DNA of 64,000 nt, from positions 143,154-207,153 of the forward strand of contig CP181398.1 in assembly GCA_047946875.1 (NCBI GenBank). Direction: 5' to 3'. Positions 1-31,738 of the stretch are shown here, in pieces (position 1 is the stretch's first letter; each line of letters starts with the position of its first letter). A program made the position numbers and the translations under genes. The notes beneath the pieces were generated by a model that had not been told where the DNA came from, did no database searches, and was given only the letters and a program-made list of their open reading frames with translations. The stretch comes from Candidatus Kerfeldbacteria bacterium (GTDB taxonomy: Bacteria > Patescibacteriota > Patescibacteriia > UBA10025 > JAHIVO01).

Positions 1-98
1 GGGAAGGGGATGAGCTGAGAGAAAAAGTTAATAGGGCACTATTAACTATTCGGGAAAGAGGGGAATATGATAGTTTGTATAAAAAATGGTTTGGATAA
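1..98 (+). CDS. 3' end of a periplasmic/extracellular solute-binding protein (SBP family 3-like), partial
   Basis: Frame 2 translates to ...[31 protein letters not shown]. This is the typical C-terminal motif (xYDxxYxKWFG) of amino-acid binding SBPs. Truncated by the window edge. Confidence 0.45.
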
Positions 99-123
99 AA
101 AAGATAAATAATTATTTATAAAC

Positions 124-1236
124 ATGATGAATGAAACACAACCCCAACAACCAACACCTGATCAGCAGAAACAGGTAAAAAAAGCTAAGCGGATTCTATG
201 GTTTGGTCTTATTTCGATTGTGGTGGTGGGCTTGGCTATTGCAGTTTATTTTGTATTCATTAATCCGATTGAGAGAGATATTATTAGTACGAATACAAAT
301 ATCGTAAGCACTAATGAAATGGTAAAATTTCCAGATACTGAAGTGGGCATTTCTTGTGTAGAGAATGAGGATTGTATCATCGTAGATGTAACTGAATCTG
401 TGGGGGATTGCTGCTCGATGCCGGATTGTAGAATTTGGTATACTTCAGATAATTATGTAGCAGTGAATTCGAAAGAGTATTATGATTATGCCCTAGAATA
501 TAAAGATAATAACTGTGGTGAAGTATTGTGTCCAATTTATGAACGGATGTACTGTCCTACGGGAGAACCATATGCTGATGCTGATTGCCAGAATAATGTT
601 TGTGTAAAAGTTTTATATGAAAATGATATATTACGACCTTATTCAAATGAAGCGAATGGATATTCATTAATGATACCAGTCGGATATGGAAAGAATACAG
701 AGTTATCAGGATATATCGCCCTTGATGTAGTAACTACACCATCTGCAAAATTAACATTCAATCGTATAATCGTGATGGTTGAAAATACTGATATGCATAC
801 ATATAGACTTAGTATTTTGGCTAATCCAGAAGCTGATGTAGAAAATATTAAGGAAGAGGAAGTGATAGTGGCTGGTTTGACAGCAAATAAGATTACATTA
901 AAAAATGCATTAGGAGAAACAATTATACATTATCTTGTATCATATTTAGGAAAAGTATATGACATCGAAACAACTGACTCAGTTAACCAAGAAACTATTG
1001 ATATATTTATTGCCAATTTTGAAATTACCCAACTCGATGAGGATATTAATATTGCAGATACATCTGTGTTTGAAAATAAAACATGCGTTTCAAATAATGA
1101 ATGTGGAGCTTATCCGTGTGATCAAGGCACTTGTTTGGTAAAGGAGTGTAATAGTGATGATGAATGCTCAGTCGGGACATGTGGGCAGTATGTTACTCCG
1201 GTGCCTGGATATTGCACGATGATAGATAGTTTATAA
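124..1236 (+). CDS. Membrane-anchored (N-terminal TM) Cys-rich extracellular protein, paralog 1 of a tandem family
   Basis: Has an N-terminal hydrophobic anchor. Carries a 10-Cys domain FPDTEVGISC..EDC.IVD..ESVGDCC..PDCR.WY...YVAVNS...NC...CP...CP.GEP.A.ADC..NVCVKV.YE that is shared with the next two ORFs. A second CxxC-rich C-terminal module is present. Confidence 0.7.
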   Translation: MMNETQPQQPTPDQQKQVKKAKRILWFGLISIVVVGLAIAVYFVFINPIERDIISTNTNIVSTNEMVKFPDTEVGISCVENEDCIIVDVTESVGDCCSMPDCRIWYTSDNYVAVNSKEYYDYALEYKDNNCGEVLCPIYERMYCPTGEPYADADCQNNVCVKVLYENDILRPYSNEANGYSLMIPVGYGKNTELSGYIALDVVTTPSAKLTFNRIIVMVENTDMHTYRLSILANPEADVENIKEEEVIVAGLTANKITLKNALGETIIHYLVSYLGKVYDIETTDSVNQETIDIFIANFEITQLDEDINIADTSVFENKTCVSNNECGAYPCDQGTCLVKECNSDDECSVGTCGQYVTPVPGYCTMIDSL

Positions 1237-1243
1237 TAACTAT

Positions 1244-1903
1244 ATGAAACAACAATTCCCCGAAACAATTAAAAACCCATCAACCAAAATTTGGATTATT
1301 TTTTTTGTAATTATAATAGCTCTGGTAGTTGGTGTTTATTTTTATTTTGTGCAAACTCAGGAAGAGTGGAATATAAGTATAATAAACATTAATACAACAA
1401 CGATAAAAAAGTGTAGTGATATAACTGATGAAAATGAGTGTTCCGCACGCAAGGATTGCCGACGACATGATTTGTGCCCATGTAATAATCTAAATCTAAA
1501 ATGTGGTGTAGCGCCTGAATTTCCGCCTGAAGTTACATGTGACTGTTTTATGGATGGTTTCGAATATTGCGAGGATTTGATGTGTGACGGGGTAAATGCT
1601 ACATGGATTTTTAATGGACCAGTTTCACGGTCTTGTGAGGGGGATAGCGACTGCAAGTTTGTTGATAACACGATAAATTATAGCGGGTGCTGTAGAAATA
1701 ACTCTTTTTGTCCTGATTATTCAGATCAGAAATATGTAGCAGTGAATAAGGTTACATTTAATGAGTTTAGGAGTCAATTGATGGTTGAGAATGATTGTGA
1801 TACAGCACTATGTCCAGTCGTTGATATATTACCGTGTCCTGAAGTTGAGCCGTTTTATGAAGTGAAATGTCTAAGTAATTTATGTGTAAAACAAAAAATA
1901 TGA
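1244..1903 (+). CDS. Membrane-anchored Cys-rich extracellular protein, paralog 2
   Basis: N-terminal TM. C-terminal domain CEGDSDCKFVD..SGCC...CPDY.DQKYVAVNK...NDCDTALCP...CPEVEPFYEVKCLSNLCVK is homologous to the domain of ORF 124..1236. Confidence 0.7.
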   Translation: MKQQFPETIKNPSTKIWIIFFVIIIALVVGVYFYFVQTQEEWNISIININTTTIKKCSDITDENECSARKDCRRHDLCPCNNLNLKCGVAPEFPPEVTCDCFMDGFEYCEDLMCDGVNATWIFNGPVSRSCEGDSDCKFVDNTINYSGCCRNNSFCPDYSDQKYVAVNKVTFNEFRSQLMVENDCDTALCPVVDILPCPEVEPFYEVKCLSNLCVKQKI

Positions 1904-2643
1904 AAAAAAAATCAAAATTAGTCTATCTGGTTGTTATTACTATAATTGTGATTGTGGCTATTGTTATTTTAGCATTAGCTTCTTTTGATTATTGTCCATC
2001 GGAATCGGAGAAGGTTTATGGTTTTTTTTGTAAGTCACTAGATTGGGAGGAAGTTGTCCCATCTTGTGGTGATGGTATATGTACTAGTGGAGAAGAATGT
2101 GAGAAAGGTGGTTTGTGTATATACAGTTGCCCTGAAGATTGTAAAAATATAGATATTAATACTAATACTGCAATTACTCCAATAGAAGATTGTACTTATT
2201 ATTTTGATGGATGTAATATTTGTGCTAAGGATCCAGATGGAGTTGTGGGTTGTACAGCGACATATTGTGAGCCTGGAGAGTACGAACCTTATAAATGTTT
2301 TGATGATGATACAAACAATGTTACCATTGAAACTAAGATTCAATTTCCAGACACTGAAATCGGCGTATCCTGTACGGACATTGAGGATTGTAGAATTGTT
2401 GATACAAAAGAATCTGTGGGGGATTGCTGTCCAACACCGGATTGTCGTAATTGGTATGTTAATGATGAATATGTGGCAGTTAATTCGGAATTATATAACC
2501 AACAGAGATTGGAATTGATGCAAGAAAATAATTGTGCTGTTACTGAATGTCCGCAATATTCTTCAGCCTATTGTCCATCGGGAGAGCCATTTGCTTATGC
2601 AGACTGTGTTGATAATGTTTGTGTAAAAGTTAAATATGAATAA
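1882..2643 (+). CDS. Membrane-anchored Cys-rich extracellular protein, paralog 3
   Basis: N-terminal TM. C-terminal FPDTEIGVSCTDIEDCRIVDTKESVGDCCPTPDCRNWYVNDEYVAVNS...CVDNVCVKVKYE is almost the same domain as in 124..1236. Its start overlaps the end of the upstream gene, suggesting an operon. Confidence 0.7.
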   Translation: MCKTKNMKKKSKLVYLVVITIIVIVAIVILALASFDYCPSESEKVYGFFCKSLDWEEVVPSCGDGICTSGEECEKGGLCIYSCPEDCKNIDINTNTAITPIEDCTYYFDGCNICAKDPDGVVGCTATYCEPGEYEPYKCFDDDTNNVTIETKIQFPDTEIGVSCTDIEDCRIVDTKESVGDCCPTPDCRNWYVNDEYVAVNSELYNQQRLELMQENNCAVTECPQYSSAYCPSGEPFAYADCVDNVCVKVKYE

Positions 2644-4117
2644 TAGTAAGAAACAAATTATTTGGGTAGCAGCTACAGTAATAATTTTATTTTTATTATT
2701 AATACTAGCTTTTGCAGTATATAATTATTTTATGCAGGAGGATGTATCTTTATCAAATAATAGTAATGTAGCTACAAACATTAATAATTCTAATACGAAT
2801 AGCTTAAATATAAACTCCAATGTAGATCTAAAATTATCTGATGGTTTTTTATTTTTTGATAAATCCGTTCATGATCCTTCGGATTATAGAATATCTACCT
2901 CCCAACTTAATCACATAAGTGCTGTTGGAAAAATAACAAATATTACAAAGTTGGAATTACAAAATTCAATTAATTCCGCTGGTTATAACGATGGTAAAAT
3001 ATATTATATTACTAAGGGTAATTCAAGTGATATTAATAATGCTATCGGAATATATAATATTATTGATGGTAAAAAAGAAATACTAATATCTAATGATACC
3101 GAGGAATGGATTATGAAAATATTCATCTATGATCAAAAATATATTTTTTATTTACAGGGGCCTTGTATAAGCGGTGGGCAGGAAGAGTGGGACAAATCAA
3201 AATGTAATTTATATAGGTATAATTTAGAAGAAGGTGACAATGAGTTATTTATAGAAGATATTTATAGTCAAATAGATGGTATATATTTAGCTTCTTTAAG
3301 TTTTAAATCTTATAATTCTAATGATGGAATTTTAGAAATGGGATTTAATGGAGGTGATGCCGGGGTAGGGGCAATGGCTATTTATCAGTTAGATTTAGAA
3401 TCTAAAGAAATAAATAAAATTGTAAGTGAACGTTATTATTCTTGTGAATTTGAATGTGATGAAATAGATTTAGAAAATAATAAATATTATAAATTGCGTG
3501 ATGAATTTCATAAATTACAACCTTGTGGAGAATACACATTTGGAAGTTTTGGATATTATACAATTTATAAAGATGGGATAGAAGTTGAAGGCGTAGAGCC
3601 ATGGCAAATAGTAAAATGTTTTGAACCCGCTGAAATTGAAGCTGATACATCAGATTGGCTAACGTATGAAAATAAGGATAATGTATTTTCTTTAAAATAT
3701 CCTAATACTTTCAGTTTGATCCAAGAAAGTGAAAATCATCTTGGAGAAAAAAATATAACAATGAGCACAATCAATACGAACAGTATTTATGAAAATACTT
3801 TAGGGGAAAGGAGTGATGCTATATTTATCTATCCATCAGTGGCAGCAGATTTTTTAGATAGATTGGGACATATAGGAGGAGTCCTTAGTAAAGAATATTT
3901 TGATAGTAAAGAAGCAAAAGAAAATGTAATAACAAAATTTCAGAAAATTGTTGAGATTGATGGGCGGGATGGATATCAAATGATAAATTATGAATTGGGT
4001 GAAACTATGTACACAATTATTGCAAATAATGATGAAACTTTTTTTGTAGTAGTATGGCATATTGGATTTGAGGAGGAATATTATAATGACATATTAAAGA
4101 GTATTACTTTTAATTAA
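2636..4117 (+). CDS. Membrane-anchored hypothetical extracellular protein (Asn/Ser-rich)
   Basis: 493-aa ORF with an N-terminal TM. Its start overlaps the stop of the upstream gene. No recognisable catalytic motif. Confidence 0.6.
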   Translation: MNNSKKQIIWVAATVIILFLLLILAFAVYNYFMQEDVSLSNNSNVATNINNSNTNSLNINSNVDLKLSDGFLFFDKSVHDPSDYRISTSQLNHISAVGKITNITKLELQNSINSAGYNDGKIYYITKGNSSDINNAIGIYNIIDGKKEILISNDTEEWIMKIFIYDQKYIFYLQGPCISGGQEEWDKSKCNLYRYNLEEGDNELFIEDIYSQIDGIYLASLSFKSYNSNDGILEMGFNGGDAGVGAMAIYQLDLESKEINKIVSERYYSCEFECDEIDLENNKYYKLRDEFHKLQPCGEYTFGSFGYYTIYKDGIEVEGVEPWQIVKCFEPAEIEADTSDWLTYENKDNVFSLKYPNTFSLIQESENHLGEKNITMSTINTNSIYENTLGERSDAIFIYPSVAADFLDRLGHIGGVLSKEYFDSKEAKENVITKFQKIVEIDGRDGYQMINYELGETMYTIIANNDETFFVVVWHIGFEEEYYNDILKSITFN

Positions 4118-4237
4118 ACTGATACTGATGATATGTAATCATGCTTAGCTGTTGAAAATAATTATATTTTGCAATACATATCAGGTTTGTGTGTAAAAGT
4201 ATTTAGGCAATATTAATTATTCTATAATATTATATAA

Positions 4238-4264
4238 TTAGCACTCTTGACTTGAGAGTGCTAA
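4238..4264 (+). promoter_or_regulatory. CIRCE operator (HrcA binding site), with a TATAAT at 4223-4228 just upstream
   Basis: TTAGCACTC-ttgacttga-GAGTGCTAA is a perfect match to the CIRCE consensus TTAGCACTC-N9-GAGTGCTAA. It lies 27 bp upstream of the hrcA start. Confidence 0.95.
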
Positions 4265-4290
4265 TTGGATTATAATACTTATACAACTAT

Positions 4291-4998
4291 ATGAATGAAA
4301 GAAAAAGTGCCATTTTTGGGGCTATTATCAAAGAACATGTAACTAAAGGCAATACTGTTGCCTCAAAAGTGCTTGTGGATAAGTATGACTTTCAGCTCTC
4401 TTCAGCAACTATGCGTAATGAGATGGTAGAGCTTGAAAAAGATGGTTATATATTTCAGCCTCATACATCAGCAGGACGTATCCCTACAGAAAAAGGTTGG
4501 AAGTATTATATAGAAAATTTTATTCAGAATAAGCAGATAAGTAAGAAACACAAAGAATTAATGGATGTAATATTCGATGAAGGGGGAATGAATTTTGACA
4601 TTACTGTGAAGAAAGTTTCCAAAGGCTTGGCAGAGATTTCTAAGGATGCAGTATTTGTGGGATTTTCACACGATGATTTTTATTACACCGGCTTATCACA
4701 TTTATTCAAAAATCCTGAGTTTCAAAAACTAGATTTAGTACAGCATGTTTCAGAAGTAGTGGATCATCTTGGTGAAGTTATTACTGATATGTTTGATGAA
4801 GTAAGTGAATCAGAAACAGAGATTGTGCTAATTGGAAAAGAAAATCCATTTGGTGCAGAATGCAGTACGATTGTAACAAGTTATTCGAATGGTAAAGACA
4901 ATAAAGGTGTATTTGGAATCTTGGGGCCGATGAGGATGAATTATGAAGATAACATGGCTTTGATAAAATATGCAAAAGAATTATTTAATAATGTATAA
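4291..4998 (+). CDS. hrcA: Heat-inducible transcription repressor HrcA (short form)
   Basis: N-terminal wHTH with VSxATMRNEMxxLEKDGYIFQPHTSAGRIPTEKG, the HrcA signature. Sits directly downstream of CIRCE and upstream of grpE. Confidence 0.85.
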   Translation: MNERKSAIFGAIIKEHVTKGNTVASKVLVDKYDFQLSSATMRNEMVELEKDGYIFQPHTSAGRIPTEKGWKYYIENFIQNKQISKKHKELMDVIFDEGGMNFDITVKKVSKGLAEISKDAVFVGFSHDDFYYTGLSHLFKNPEFQKLDLVQHVSEVVDHLGEVITDMFDEVSESETEIVLIGKENPFGAECSTIVTSYSNGKDNKGVFGILGPMRMNYEDNMALIKYAKELFNNV

Positions 4999-6083: not shown

Positions 6084-6119
6084 CCTGATCCGGCTTTGCC
6101 GGAAATTAACAATATATAT

Positions 6120-6509
6120 ATGAAAATAATTGGAGGAAATAATATTCCACCACCAGGAGGTTCGCAAGGACCGCCAGGATCAGGGGGGAGATCAGGAAAA
6201 CCAGAACAGATAAAGATAGATGCCAAATGTACTATCTGTGGTAGTCTATATGACTTCGGTAAATTGGAAGTAATACAGGAAGAAGAAGGCGCAACATTGA
6301 TGTATATCAAATGTTCTGTCTGCCAAAGCGCCGCTCTATCGATAGTGGCTATTGGATCATTCGGGATCAAAGTATCGAGTGTAATCACAGATCTGGAAAA
6401 AGATGAAGTTATGCATTTTCAAGAAGAGAGATCAGTACAGAGTGAAGATGTTTTAGCTCTACATGAGGAGTTAGAAATTACAGATAATTTTTTAGAAGAG
6501 ATTAATTAA
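6120..6509 (+). CDS. Zinc-ribbon protein with a Gly/Pro-rich N-terminus, inserted in the heat-shock operon
   Basis: The ATG at 6120 follows GGAGG-poor AT-rich spacing. The track ORF starts at a TTG at 6096. Contains CTICGS...CSVCQS (CxxC-x23-CxxC) and an acidic C-terminus. Lies between hsp20 and dnaK. Confidence 0.6.
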   Translation: MKIIGGNNIPPPGGSQGPPGSGGRSGKPEQIKIDAKCTICGSLYDFGKLEVIQEEEGATLMYIKCSVCQSAALSIVAIGSFGIKVSSVITDLEKDEVMHFQEERSVQSEDVLALHEELEITDNFLEEIN

Positions 6510-12167: not shown

Positions 12168-14015
12168 TTACTCCGCTATTTGAAGTAGGTCAGCGGTGGT
12201 AAATTTCTGCGATCCGCCGGTGTCTTTGTTAGTGATGGTGAGCGTGACATCTTCTTTTGTTCCGTCTGATGTTATCAGCTGCATGGTGTCAGTATCTAAG
12301 GAGTTATCACCGAGTGGGATTTTGACATGAATTTTATCTAAAGTAACTACCTTTGATGTGCCAAATGAAACGGTTGCCTCAGAGTCAATGTCAATATCGC
12401 CACCTACTAATGTTGAATCTTCTCTGGTATCTTTAAATAGAATTGTCGTGGTGGCAAACTCTGTCGTCGATGAGTATTCTTTACCGCTGATAGATATTGT
12501 GTATGTAGTATCAACTAATGATGTGTCAGTTGGTATTGTTCCTATTTGCTGTTTAATGCTTTCTATACTATAAGCTTCAGCTTTATTTTCTACTATAATA
12601 TCGATATATGAAGTTTGTTCACCGCGTGCACTGGAATACGGAGCAAGGCGATTTGTAATTTGTCGCTCATTCACAAGACCATAGCGGAAGTCTAGATTAT
12701 AGCCGCCACACATGACTGACGAATATGTCCCTTTGATATTATTTGATACATACGAACATCCATTAAAGTACCCAACATCTAACGCTTCTTTTACTTGGCC
12801 TTCAAGATCACCCCACCATAATTCCGCTACAACTACAGAACTTGCGCAGTTTGGAAAACCTGGACTATTGGATCCACTAGAGTCAATTCTTTCATCTCTG
12901 AGTAGGAAAGCTTGGTGGCCAAATTCATGATGGAAAACATGGCGAATACCGCGCACGGCCCCTTGTTCCATCTCAAGAAAATCAGTAGTCGCTATATATG
13001 AATCTCGATTGTAATGCGCATAACCGACAACCCCGTCGGGGAAGGTAGTGTTACATAGGAAAACAGGATAAACGATGCCATTACTGATACCACTCTTTTC
13101 AATCGCCCAATTGTAATGGTCAGCTCCAAATTCGCAACTTGTTAGGAGTTGCTCATTGAGGTACCAAAAATTATATTTATCTAAATTATCTTTAAGTACT
13201 TCCATTTCAGCGAATGGCTTTACCTCAGTTAGCCAGTTATATTCCGGATGGCCCGCTCCATAATATGTTAAGTTAAATGGTTCAACATTATACTGATCAT
13301 TTAAGTCGATTAACACTTTACTTTTGATTATTACCTCATTTATCGATGGCTGATCTGATCCGATAAATACGACATTTACACGATTTGCATTCTTATCATT
13401 ATGATTACTATACAACTCTTTTAATATAGGTATGCATGTACAACCATTACACTGCTCATCAAGTCCGCATCCACCATTATAATCGCATTCTTCCCCTAGT
13501 TCTGGTTGAATTTGCCCATCTCCACATGAATATTTACACGCACCATCATCACAGTACCAATAATTTCCATACCGCACCGAACAATCCGCTTCTGTAGAGC
13601 TAAATTCAGGCCCTAAAAGGGCTTCGGTTTCTTCATTAGCCTCTGTATCAATACTAGCACCACGGATGACAGGGGTATTGATTTCTGGGCTATTTGGGCA
13701 ATAATAATCAACTACATGATCGCTAGTTTCGCAGTTATCAGTGTATTTATTAATCTTTCCATAGCCATTATCAATTGTCACCCATCCATGCCTTTTAAAG
13801 GCATCTTTTCCGTCTGAATCACGGCATATTGGTGTACCACTTAAAATAGGATCAGTTTCTGAGTCCGGTCCAATTATTAATCCATACACAAGTCCACCTC
13901 CGGCGATAACGGCCGCGAGTATCATCGTAGTGAGCGCAATCATGACTGGTGTCTGGATTTTTGTTGAAGTGATTTGTTGGATTTGTTTGTTCATAGGTTT
14001 TTTCTTAGGAGGCAT
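12168..14015 (-). CDS. Membrane-anchored secreted zinc metallopeptidase (HExxH), Cys-rich
   Basis: N-terminal TM (IALTTMILAAVIAGGGLVYGLII). HEFGH motif (VFHHEFGHQAFLLRDE) with downstream Glu candidates, i.e. gluzincin-like. Many Cys pairs (CGDGQ...CDYNGGCG...CNGCTC). Confidence 0.75.
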   Translation of the reverse strand: MPPKKKPMNKQIQQITSTKIQTPVMIALTTMILAAVIAGGGLVYGLIIGPDSETDPILSGTPICRDSDGKDAFKRHGWVTIDNGYGKINKYTDNCETSDHVVDYYCPNSPEINTPVIRGASIDTEANEETEALLGPEFSSTEADCSVRYGNYWYCDDGACKYSCGDGQIQPELGEECDYNGGCGLDEQCNGCTCIPILKELYSNHNDKNANRVNVVFIGSDQPSINEVIIKSKVLIDLNDQYNVEPFNLTYYGAGHPEYNWLTEVKPFAEMEVLKDNLDKYNFWYLNEQLLTSCEFGADHYNWAIEKSGISNGIVYPVFLCNTTFPDGVVGYAHYNRDSYIATTDFLEMEQGAVRGIRHVFHHEFGHQAFLLRDERIDSSGSNSPGFPNCASSVVVAELWWGDLEGQVKEALDVGYFNGCSYVSNNIKGTYSSVMCGGYNLDFRYGLVNERQITNRLAPYSSARGEQTSYIDIIVENKAEAYSIESIKQQIGTIPTDTSLVDTTYTISISGKEYSSTTEFATTTILFKDTREDSTLVGGDIDIDSEATVSFGTSKVVTLDKIHVKIPLGDNSLDTDTMQLITSDGTKEDVTLTITNKDTGGSQKFTTADLLQIAE

Positions 14016-18572: not shown

Positions 18573-19703
18573 ATGGCAAATAAAGATTTATATGAAATTC
18601 TTGGAGTGGCTAAAGAAGCTAGTCAAGATGAAATAAAAAAAGCTTATAGAAAACTTGCTCATCAACATCATCCAGATAAATCTGGAGGTGATGAAGCTAA
18701 ATTTAAAGAGATTAATTCAGCTTATCAAGTGCTTAGTAATGAGCAGAAGCGCCAACAATATGATCAGTTTGGTCAGAATTTTAATCAAGCTGGTGGTGGG
18801 CAAGGAGGCCAAGGTGGTTTTGGTGGTGGGATGAATTGGGATGATTTCGCTCGTGCGTCTGGTGGTCAGCAGGGACCGTTTGGTCAAGGTGGTCAGGGAG
18901 CTGAGTATGATATGGGAGATATATTCGGAGATATTTTTGGTTTTGGTAAACGTGGTGGAGCAAGCTCTGGTGCCTCAGCACAAGGTGGTGATATACAGGC
19001 TGAAATGCAAATTGAATTCAAAGAAGCTGCTTTCGGAGCAGAAAAGGTAATAGATTTATATAAGCATGCCACTTGTTCACATTGTAAGGGGAATGGAGCA
19101 GAGCCAGGTTCAAAAATTGATACTTGTAAAAATTGCAATGGGCAGGGTAAGGTAGAGAGAGTGCAGCAAACTGTTTTAGGTGCATTTCGTACGGCAACTG
19201 TGTGTCCTGAATGTCGTGGTGAAGGTAAAAAATATGACAAGAAATGTAAAGAGTGTAGCGGTGACGGAAGAGTAAAAGAATCTGAAAAAATCAAAGTAAA
19301 AATTCCAGCTGGGATAGCAGAAGGTGAGACGATACGATTATCTGGAAAAGGGGAAGTAGGTCTAAAAGGAGCACCAGCGGGTGATCTTTATGTTACGATG
19401 AGAGTAGTTAATGATCCAAACTTTAATAGAGAGGGTGATGACATTTTGTCAGAAGTTAATATCAGTATTTCCCAAGCTACTTTAGGAGATAAAATAAATA
19501 TAATGACTTTGGATGGCGAAGTGACTTTAAAAGTTCCATCTGGTACTCAATCAGGTAAAGTGTTTAGTCTTAAAGGAAAAGGGACTCATCATCTACGTAT
19601 ACGTGGACGTGGCGATCATTTAGTAACAGTGAATATTCAAATACCTACAAAATTAAGTAGAGACCAAAAGAAGTTATTTGAACAATTATCCAAGTTAGAT
19701 TAA
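18573..19703 (+). CDS. dnaJ: Chaperone DnaJ
   Basis: J-domain with HPD ([12 protein letters not shown]), a G/F-rich region, four CxxCxGxG zinc-finger repeats and the C-terminal substrate-binding domains. Confidence 0.95.
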
Positions 19704-31394: not shown

Positions 31395-31465
31395 ATTAAT
31401 TCAATGCGGGATCGTCTAATGGTAGGACAGCGGCCTCTGAAGCCGCTAATCCTGGTTCGAGTCCA
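31395..31465 (+). tRNA. tRNA-Gln (anticodon CUG)
   Basis: Acceptor stem TGCGGGA/TCCCGCA, D-arm TCTAATGGTAGGA, anticodon stem-loop GCGGC-CUCUGAA-GCCGC with anticodon CUG, T-arm CCTGGTTCGAGTCCAGG, and discriminator G. CCA is not encoded. Confidence 0.85.
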
Positions 31466-31738
31466 GGTCCCGCAGAATTTAAACAGTTAAAATATCATAA
31501 AATAAAAATATAATTAGGGCACTTGCCCTACTAATAATTGGGAGGTCCAGGCTTGCCTGCCGATAGGCAGGTCCCGCAATTTAATCAATAAAAAAAGTCC
31601 TTTAGTATTAAAGAACTTGGATTTTTTTATTTGATTGTTATACTTTTGGATAGCACTATTAGCTATTTTAAAAGCATTATGATAGGGTGTATTTGTAAAG
31701 AGTAATATAGTTACTCTTGTTTTTTTACTATAAATGTT

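Follow-up and report, generated by a model that had tools for sequence, protein, structure and literature searches.

A rare ten-cysteine domain shared by a tandem array of predicted membrane-anchored proteins in a Candidatus Kerfeldbacteria genome

Bacteria of the candidate phyla radiation (CPR) depend on other cells, and their surface proteins seldom contain a domain that can be recognised. Several described families offer points of comparison for such proteins, namely the eukaryotic SRCR (~110 aa, alpha/beta) and Frizzled cysteine-rich (CRD, 10 Cys) ectodomains, which are functional analogues in the sense of disulfide-rich binding modules of ~100-120 aa carried by membrane-anchored mosaic proteins, the Myxo_Cys_RPT modules (TIGR04201), which are secreted, bacterial and Cys-rich, and the Kunitz/BPTI module (PF00014), which is small, disulfide-stabilised and secreted. 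The present analysis deals with a stretch of 64,000 nucleotides from a Candidatus Kerfeldbacteria bacterium, a member of the CPR (contig CP181398.1), hereafter the window, the plus strand of which carries four closely spaced open reading frames (ORFs), O1 to O4. The first three encode proteins sharing a domain with ten cysteines, here called the 10-Cys domain. While this kind of protein, i.e., an anchored, Cys-rich and modular surface protein, is familiar, the 10-Cys family is new.

The domains of O1, O2 and O3 align over ~100 residues with their ten Cys in register and 27 invariant columns, and a six-frame scan of the window with a hidden Markov model (HMM) of the three copies found exactly these three, the next best hit having an E-value of 0.5, in agreement with an initial annotation of this DNA that had described three consecutive ORFs sharing a ten-Cys domain. 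The same annotation considered the O1 and O3 copies almost verbatim, which is overstated for an identity of 58-60% (BLASTP, 58% over 111 aa, E 5e-44), and the O2 copy diverged, which is accurate (33% identity to O1 over 90 aa, BLASTP E 6e-15) with all ten family Cys kept in this copy as in the two others. The Cys content of O1-O3 reaches 4.9-9.9% against 0-3% in most other ORFs of the window, where no other long ORF exceeds 4.7%, the Cys-rich exceptions being two short ORFs of a crude mechanical list (111 aa with 8.1%, 99 aa with 4.0%).

The family was defined by an alignment (A3) in which the conserved positions are C13, C19, C31, C32, C37, C67, C72, C80, C91, and C96 (O3-domain numbering, used throughout). 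An exhaustive profile search among 1.84 billion representative proteins gave 66 matches at E <= 1e-3, with ~65 true members, and the three window proteins were alone in scoring at E <= 1e-30. One match, a 2887-aa PKD/Ig protein from Chitinophagales (P0058), was excluded as a Cys-rich false positive. Word-indexed homology search is insensitive here, queries with O3, the family alignment or O4 giving only the query itself or two members. The named members are few and come from "Parcubacteria group" and "Patescibacteria group" bacteria; in addition, an 8-Cys member with a lipobox (P0044, L006:4953-5345) lies on an archaeal contig next to genes for a deoxyhypusine synthase and an archaeal 4-phosphopantoate--beta-alanine ligase, each scoring above its NCBIfam cutoff, and the family thus reaches the Archaea and spans both prokaryotic domains. 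Its consensus reads NG.VS..C..D.DC.LVD...DY..CC....C..DY....YVAVN..S(helix)C....CP....P.CP......Y.A.C....C.K, where four of the Cys are invariant and another four are conserved in >=95% of the copies. Among the other residues, N50 (97%), V49 (97%), K98 (93%), and D18 (90%) are near-invariant, and O1, O2 and O3 all hold YVAVN, i.e., the [YFW]-V-A-V-N strand that precedes a helix in the structural model described below. Since many members consist of an anchor and this domain alone, the domain is autonomous.

No match covering the 10-Cys domain was found in Pfam-A, NCBIfam, PHROGs, PADLOC, or PDB sequences, and the domain that the initial annotation could not recognise likewise stays without a relative in Pfam, NCBIfam and PDB. 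Respective to the families mentioned above, SRCR and Frizzled CRD give no sequence match, the only Myxo_Cys_RPT hit is marginal and limited to one of 65 members (E 0.006), not to the domain as a family, and Kunitz/BPTI is shorter (~55 aa), with 6 Cys in another spacing, and matches the 10-Cys domain neither in sequence nor in structure. In the literature on Kerfeldbacteria and on Cys-rich or disulfide proteins of CPR/Patescibacteria, no description of such proteins was found. On these sequence comparisons, the 10-Cys domain is a rare, hitherto undescribed family of Patescibacteria and at least one archaeon. A phage or defence-system origin was considered and rejected, with no match in PHROGs or PADLOC. 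Of note, a further Cys motif, C.(L/M)EAK.CPDGS.VGR, precedes the 10-Cys domain in P0017, P0030, P0033, P0052, P0054, and P0064.

Structure prediction, which the initial annotation had proposed as a check, yielded a confident alpha/beta model. With a 58-sequence family alignment, AlphaFold2 modelled the O3 domain at a predicted local distance difference test score (pLDDT) of 92.8 and a predicted template modelling score (pTM) of 0.80, all five models reaching >=89.8 in pLDDT. In this model, a four-stranded sheet (residues 19-23, 46-50, 87-92, and 95-100) packs on a helix (residues 51-64). Foldseek comparison of the model retrieved no neighbour either in the PDB (best E 1.6, TM-score 0.19), which contains the SRCR and Frizzled CRD folds, or in BFVD (best E 2.9, TM-score <= 0.27), and the fold may therefore be new.

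The number of Cys per domain is ten in 46 copies and eight in 17, with a single copy each for 9, 11, and 13. When Cys are lost, it is preferentially by two, i.e., C32 together with C67 (phi 0.67) and C37 together with C80 (phi 0.81). Cys-parity analyses of exported proteins have made even parity together with pairwise loss a classic signature of structural disulfides. The 10-Cys domain is thus probably held by five disulfides, where co-loss would point to the pairing of C32 with C67 and, more weakly, of C37 with C80.

An extracytoplasmic location is further supported by the N-terminal regions, the topology of which was judged from hydropathy and charge. O1-O4 each have one N-terminal hydrophobic stretch of 21-25 residues (Kyte-Doolittle peaks of 2.8-3.4), preceded by 3-5 K/R and followed by acidic residues, which agrees with the single N-terminal anchor in type II orientation proposed at the outset. 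Across the family, 57 of 65 members exhibit such a segment, with a mean net charge of +2.0 before and -0.5 after it, four have a lipobox instead of the anchor, and among the eight members lacking an N-terminal segment several look N-terminally truncated (e.g., P0007, P0023, P0061, P0064). The 10-Cys domain is always C-terminal to the anchor, including in O1-O3, for which an N-in/C-out topology with the domain outside the cytoplasm is supported. O3 may be released rather than anchored, as "ALA|SF" could be a signal-peptidase site. The fusion partners passing Pfam or NCBIfam cutoffs are all of secreted types, namely PstS/PBP_like_2 (P0017), Kunitz_BPTI (P0026), PrcB_C (P0052), and PsbP_2 (P0011). 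Altogether, positive-inside anchors, lipobox variants, fusions to secreted domains, even Cys counts and paired Cys loss support disulfides formed outside the cell.

These proteins are mosaics of at least six modules, which are reshuffled between syntenic loci upstream of hrcA-grpE-dnaK. In three related loci (L003, L004, and L008), such genes lie directly upstream of hrcA-grpE-hsp20-dnaK, as in the window, with different module sets, and the 10-Cys domain is found in three copies in the window, two in L004, one in L003, and none in L008; L002 has two copies, and its contig ends too early to show hrcA. With O1 alone as query, the search for related loci found nothing, and with an alignment of O1 orthologues it gave two loci. 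O1-like orthologues from two "Patescibacteria group bacterium" genomes (L008:2700-3545 and L009:5716-6981) lack the 10-Cys domain and keep the PsbP-like domain and a C-terminal 8-Cys knot, so that the 10-Cys domain is gained or lost as a unit. As for its partners, the domain is combined with a Kunitz_BPTI module in P0026 from a syntenic locus (29.2 bits for a cutoff of 21 bits), Kunitz-like modules being present in relatives only, such as P0026 and L003 proteins; it is fused in P0052 to PrcB_C / dentilisin subunit PrcB (2.8e-13 and 9e-09), and it separates the anchor from a PstS phosphate-binding domain in P0017 and from a PsbP-like domain in O1, P0027, P0011, and P0034. In most members, though, no other folded domain is present or the 10-Cys domain is the C-terminal one. 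In O1-O4, Pfam gave no Kunitz_BPTI match at E <= 1 and no PrcB match.

Among the folded modules of O1, the 10-Cys domain evolves fastest. Compared with the orthologue from L002, it is the least conserved of them with 58% identity, against 66-79% for the other modules, and compared with P0027 the values are 35% and 44-81%, respectively. By the Nei-Gojobori method, synonymous sites are saturated (proportion of synonymous differences, pS, of 0.55-0.79), and the measurable ratios of nonsynonymous to synonymous rates (dN/dS) range from 0.09 to 0.57. The family had initially been called diversifying, which is supported in the sense of module shuffling and of domain gain or loss between loci but not at the level of codon selection. 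The role as adhesins or host-interaction factors, suggested at the same time, stays hypothetical.

Taken together, these data lead us to favour, with somewhat more confidence than doubt, the explanation that O1-O3 are stalked, disulfide-stapled and anchored binding modules on the cell surface. The type II anchored proteins would hold small Cys-rich modules outside the cell on an Asn/Thr/Ser-rich linker, and the 10-Cys domain would form a rigid binding head displayed alone or with PsbP-like, C-terminal 8-Cys knot, module B (see below), Kunitz-like, or PstS modules. Disulfides, binding function and ligand go beyond the sequence and the model; we infer that the head binds an external ligand, e.g., a component of a host cell or of an envelope, and a ligand-binding head is the most likely role of the domain, for which we see the case as evenly balanced. 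The locus upstream of hrcA would be a cassette region, where module shuffling, duplication and domain gain or loss would provide related genomes with different sets of surface proteins. Weighing against this explanation, a protease-related role would suit the fusions to Kunitz and PrcB_C no less than adhesion does, the architecture of anchor, 10-Cys domain and PstS fits a passive spacer, outside Kerfeldbacteria-like loci no conserved neighbour hints at a pathway, no enzyme forming disulfides was found within the 64 kb window, and positive selection is not detectable by dN/dS, given the saturation of dS and measurable values below 1.

The first of these points leads to the view that O1-O3 are surface-anchored protease inhibitors or protease-binding proteins, with the 10-Cys domain as a further rigid and disulfide-rich inhibitor head and the tandem genes providing a multi-specific shield against host or environmental proteases, which we regard as a live, though unlikely, rival. 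Besides the Kunitz_BPTI module of P0026 and its relatives in L003 proteins and the PrcB_C fusion of P0052, it would account for a pacifastin-like motif in O3 and P0037, and the minimal layout of an anchor or lipobox with one small domain resembles that of membrane-bound inhibitor lipoproteins. However, each of these associations is found in one to three proteins, O1-O4 themselves match neither Kunitz nor PrcB, and the fold model corresponds to no known inhibitor. As regards pacifastin (PF05375; PDB 1gl0 chain I), it is the only family that Pfam or the PDB suggests for O3 (Pacifastin_I, E 0.042, 14 bits; 1gl0_I, E 0.69), and the module is shared with P0037 (phmmer 6e-12). Both proteins exhibit C-x6-C-N-x-C...C-T-xxx-C, to be compared with the pacifastin pattern C-x9-12-C-N-x-C-x-C-x2-3-G-x3-6-C-T-x3-C, but they score 14-19 bits, below the cutoff of 27.9 bits, and have K/R in place of the fourth of the six Cys; moreover, this motif is a module separate from the 10-Cys domain.

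Alternatively, the 10-Cys domain could be a passive structural module without external ligand, i.e., a rigid pedestal or a spacer binding the envelope (cell wall or S-layer). Its position between the anchor and the PstS domain in P0017 or the PsbP-like domain in O1, P0027, P0011, and P0034, as well as the existence of O1-like orthologues devoid of it, are consistent with such a role. Yet a domain that is mostly the sole folded one or the C-terminal one would be a spacer with nothing to space, and D18, N50, and K98, polar residues that hardly vary, point to a specific site, which makes this alternative quite improbable. As for a metal- or cluster-binding (Zn, Fe-S) or redox-active domain whose Cys are not disulfide-bonded, it is very hard to sustain: ten Cys including a vicinal CC, and largely anaerobic host lineages, where extracellular disulfides are less expected, would be in its favour, but the even number of Cys and their loss in pairs speak against a metal cluster, neither a conserved His nor a CxxC motif is present in the domain family, the location is extracytoplasmic, and AlphaFold2 confidently predicts a compact fold without cofactors.

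Considered as an anchored binding head, as a shield or as a spacer, the 10-Cys domain is compact, confidently modelled, without known relatives and small enough to be expressed and solved, and as such provides a handle on the CPR surface; it is a candidate for a new Pfam entry, possibly for a new fold. If the five predicted disulfides are real, mostly anaerobic organisms with reduced genomes, and at least one archaeon, would be capable of oxidative protein folding outside the cell. Should the domain bind host envelopes or proteases, episymbiont attachment or defence would become directly testable, and should it bind neither, it remains a well-delimited domain of unknown function. In a bolder and doubtful extension, the domain would be a new fold serving as target-recognition head in ultra-small host-dependent prokaryotes, namely Patescibacteria and some archaea, with the hotspot upstream of hrcA shuffling heads that track changing host surfaces or host proteases.

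The coordinates of O1-O4 and of their modules are compiled in Table 1. O1-O3 are real genes and probably co-transcribed. The initial annotation had stops and starts overlapping all along the array, which is the case for O2/O3 (4 nt, ATGA, if O3 starts where NCBI places it, and 22 nt if it starts at the upstream ATG) and O3/O4 (8 nt) but not for O1/O2, separated by a gap of 7 nt (+7). This tight spacing fits co-transcription, as does the lack of any predicted terminator-like site or strong internal promoter in window positions 1-4400. The C-terminal end of a SBP_bac_3 solute-binding protein lies at window 3-98; its gene stops 25 nt before O1, and the O1-O4 transcript could thus start outside the window. 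O3 is identical to P0001, the Candidatus Kerfeldbacteria "hypothetical protein ACNFW9_00730," and the only database match of O4 is itself (P0071, ACNFW9_00735) in the word-indexed search, which is insensitive here.

Table 1. Positions of O1-O4 and of their predicted modules in the window (aa, residues of the encoded protein).
Feature	Position	Strand	Description
O1	124..1236	+	370 aa ORF; NCBI start at 127 (P0002); signal anchor, 10-Cys domain, PsbP_2-like domain, C-terminal 8-Cys knot
O1 signal anchor	193..261	+	aa 24-46; Kyte-Doolittle 19-mer peak 2.78; five K/R before
O1 10-Cys domain	319..630	+	aa 66-169; family HMM E 2.9e-25
O1 PsbP_2-like middle domain	625..1077	+	aa 168-318; phmmer 2.5e-44 to P0011 aa 236-382
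O1 C-terminal 8-Cys knot	1078..1233	+	aa 319-370; 79-81% identity between orthologues
O2	1244..1903	+	219 aa ORF; signal anchor, module B, 10-Cys domain; 36% identity over 215 aa to P0018
O2 signal anchor	1289..1351	+	aa 16-36; Kyte-Doolittle peak 3.02
O2 module B	1391..1609	+	aa 50-122; 10 Cys
O2 10-Cys domain	1604..1900	+	aa 121-219; diverged copy, all ten Cys; family HMM E 4.3e-28
O3	1882 or 1900..2643	+	253/247 aa; NCBI start 1900, alternative ATG 1882; signal anchor or cleavable signal, Cys-rich N-terminal region with pacifastin-like motif, 10-Cys domain
O3 hydrophobic anchor	1918..1986	+	aa 7-29 (numbering from 1900); Kyte-Doolittle peak 3.43
O3 pacifastin-like Cys motif	2191..2268	+	aa 98-123 (numbering from 1900)
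O3 10-Cys domain	2335..2640	+	aa 146-247 (numbering from 1900) or 152-253 (from 1882); family HMM E 1.3e-26
O4	2636..4117	+	493 aa ORF; anchored, without 10-Cys domain; weak PsbP-like C-terminal module, aa 336-493

Full-length orthologues of O1 are found at L002:8802-9959 (62% identity) and in P0027 (46%). A low-confidence AlphaFold2 run places the anchor stretch of O1 within a helix (aa 12-45), and the full-length model, based on a 5-sequence alignment, has a pLDDT of 47.5, with ~25-35 for the middle domain, and is unusable for the fold. This middle domain is homologous to the region of P0011 that passes the Pfam cutoff for PsbP_2 (PF18933; 28.3 bits for a cutoff of 27 bits), as is, weakly, the C-terminal part of O4; PsbP_2 is not the Cys-rich domain, though, and O1 and O4 have no direct Pfam match to it, the homology of the O1 domain running via P0011. 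The C-terminal 8-Cys knot, ending in GTCGQYVTPVPGYCTMxDxL, is the best-conserved module of O1 and, without family assignment, also occurs in P0034, P0011, P0007, L008, and L009.

Module B of O2, with the consensus C..ITD.DEC.AR.DC...D.C.C......KCG.....C.C...GFDYCEDLVCD and 8-10 Cys across its occurrences, is present in at least seven other family proteins, among them P0026 (twice), P0018, P0011, P0015, P0034, and P0022, and has no sequence match in Pfam or the PDB. That it could be a second, diverged copy of the 10-Cys domain was ruled out (hhalign probability 0.9%). Regarding the 493-aa protein that follows O3, the anchor and the overlap described initially are borne out, but O4 lacks the 10-Cys domain, and its anchor, its 8-nt overlap and the weak PsbP-like C-terminal module are all that links it to the array. 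L3_425, L3_297, and P0027 match it weakly and locally over aa 337-364 and beyond.

Downstream of O4 lies a perfect CIRCE operator, TTAGCACTC-N9-GAGTGCTAA (window 4238-4264, and 4247-4276; 0 matches expected by chance); the best sigma-70-like site (TTGACT-18-TATAAT) has its -35 hexamer in the spacer of this operator. The operator is followed by hrcA (4291), grpE, hsp20, a 4-Cys ORF, and dnaK, with dnaJ apart at 18573-19703. A functional link of the array to this heat-shock operon was rejected as mere synteny; hrcA has its own promoter-like site and CIRCE downstream of O4. The 4-Cys ORF between hsp20 and dnaK (window 6096-6509, 137 aa, two CxxC pairs, no Pfam match) has strongly conserved counterparts in the same place of the operon at L003:12758-13114, L004:6489-6866, and L008:7379-7738. 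It appears to be an uncharacterised, zinc-ribbon-like component of this lineage's HrcA/CIRCE chaperone operon. Further away on the minus strand, positions 12168-14015 encode a protein of 615 aa that has an N-terminal anchor, 17 Cys and no Pfam match, perhaps a further surface protein. A tRNA-Gln(CTG) at 31405-31475 was the sole RNA gene found in the window.

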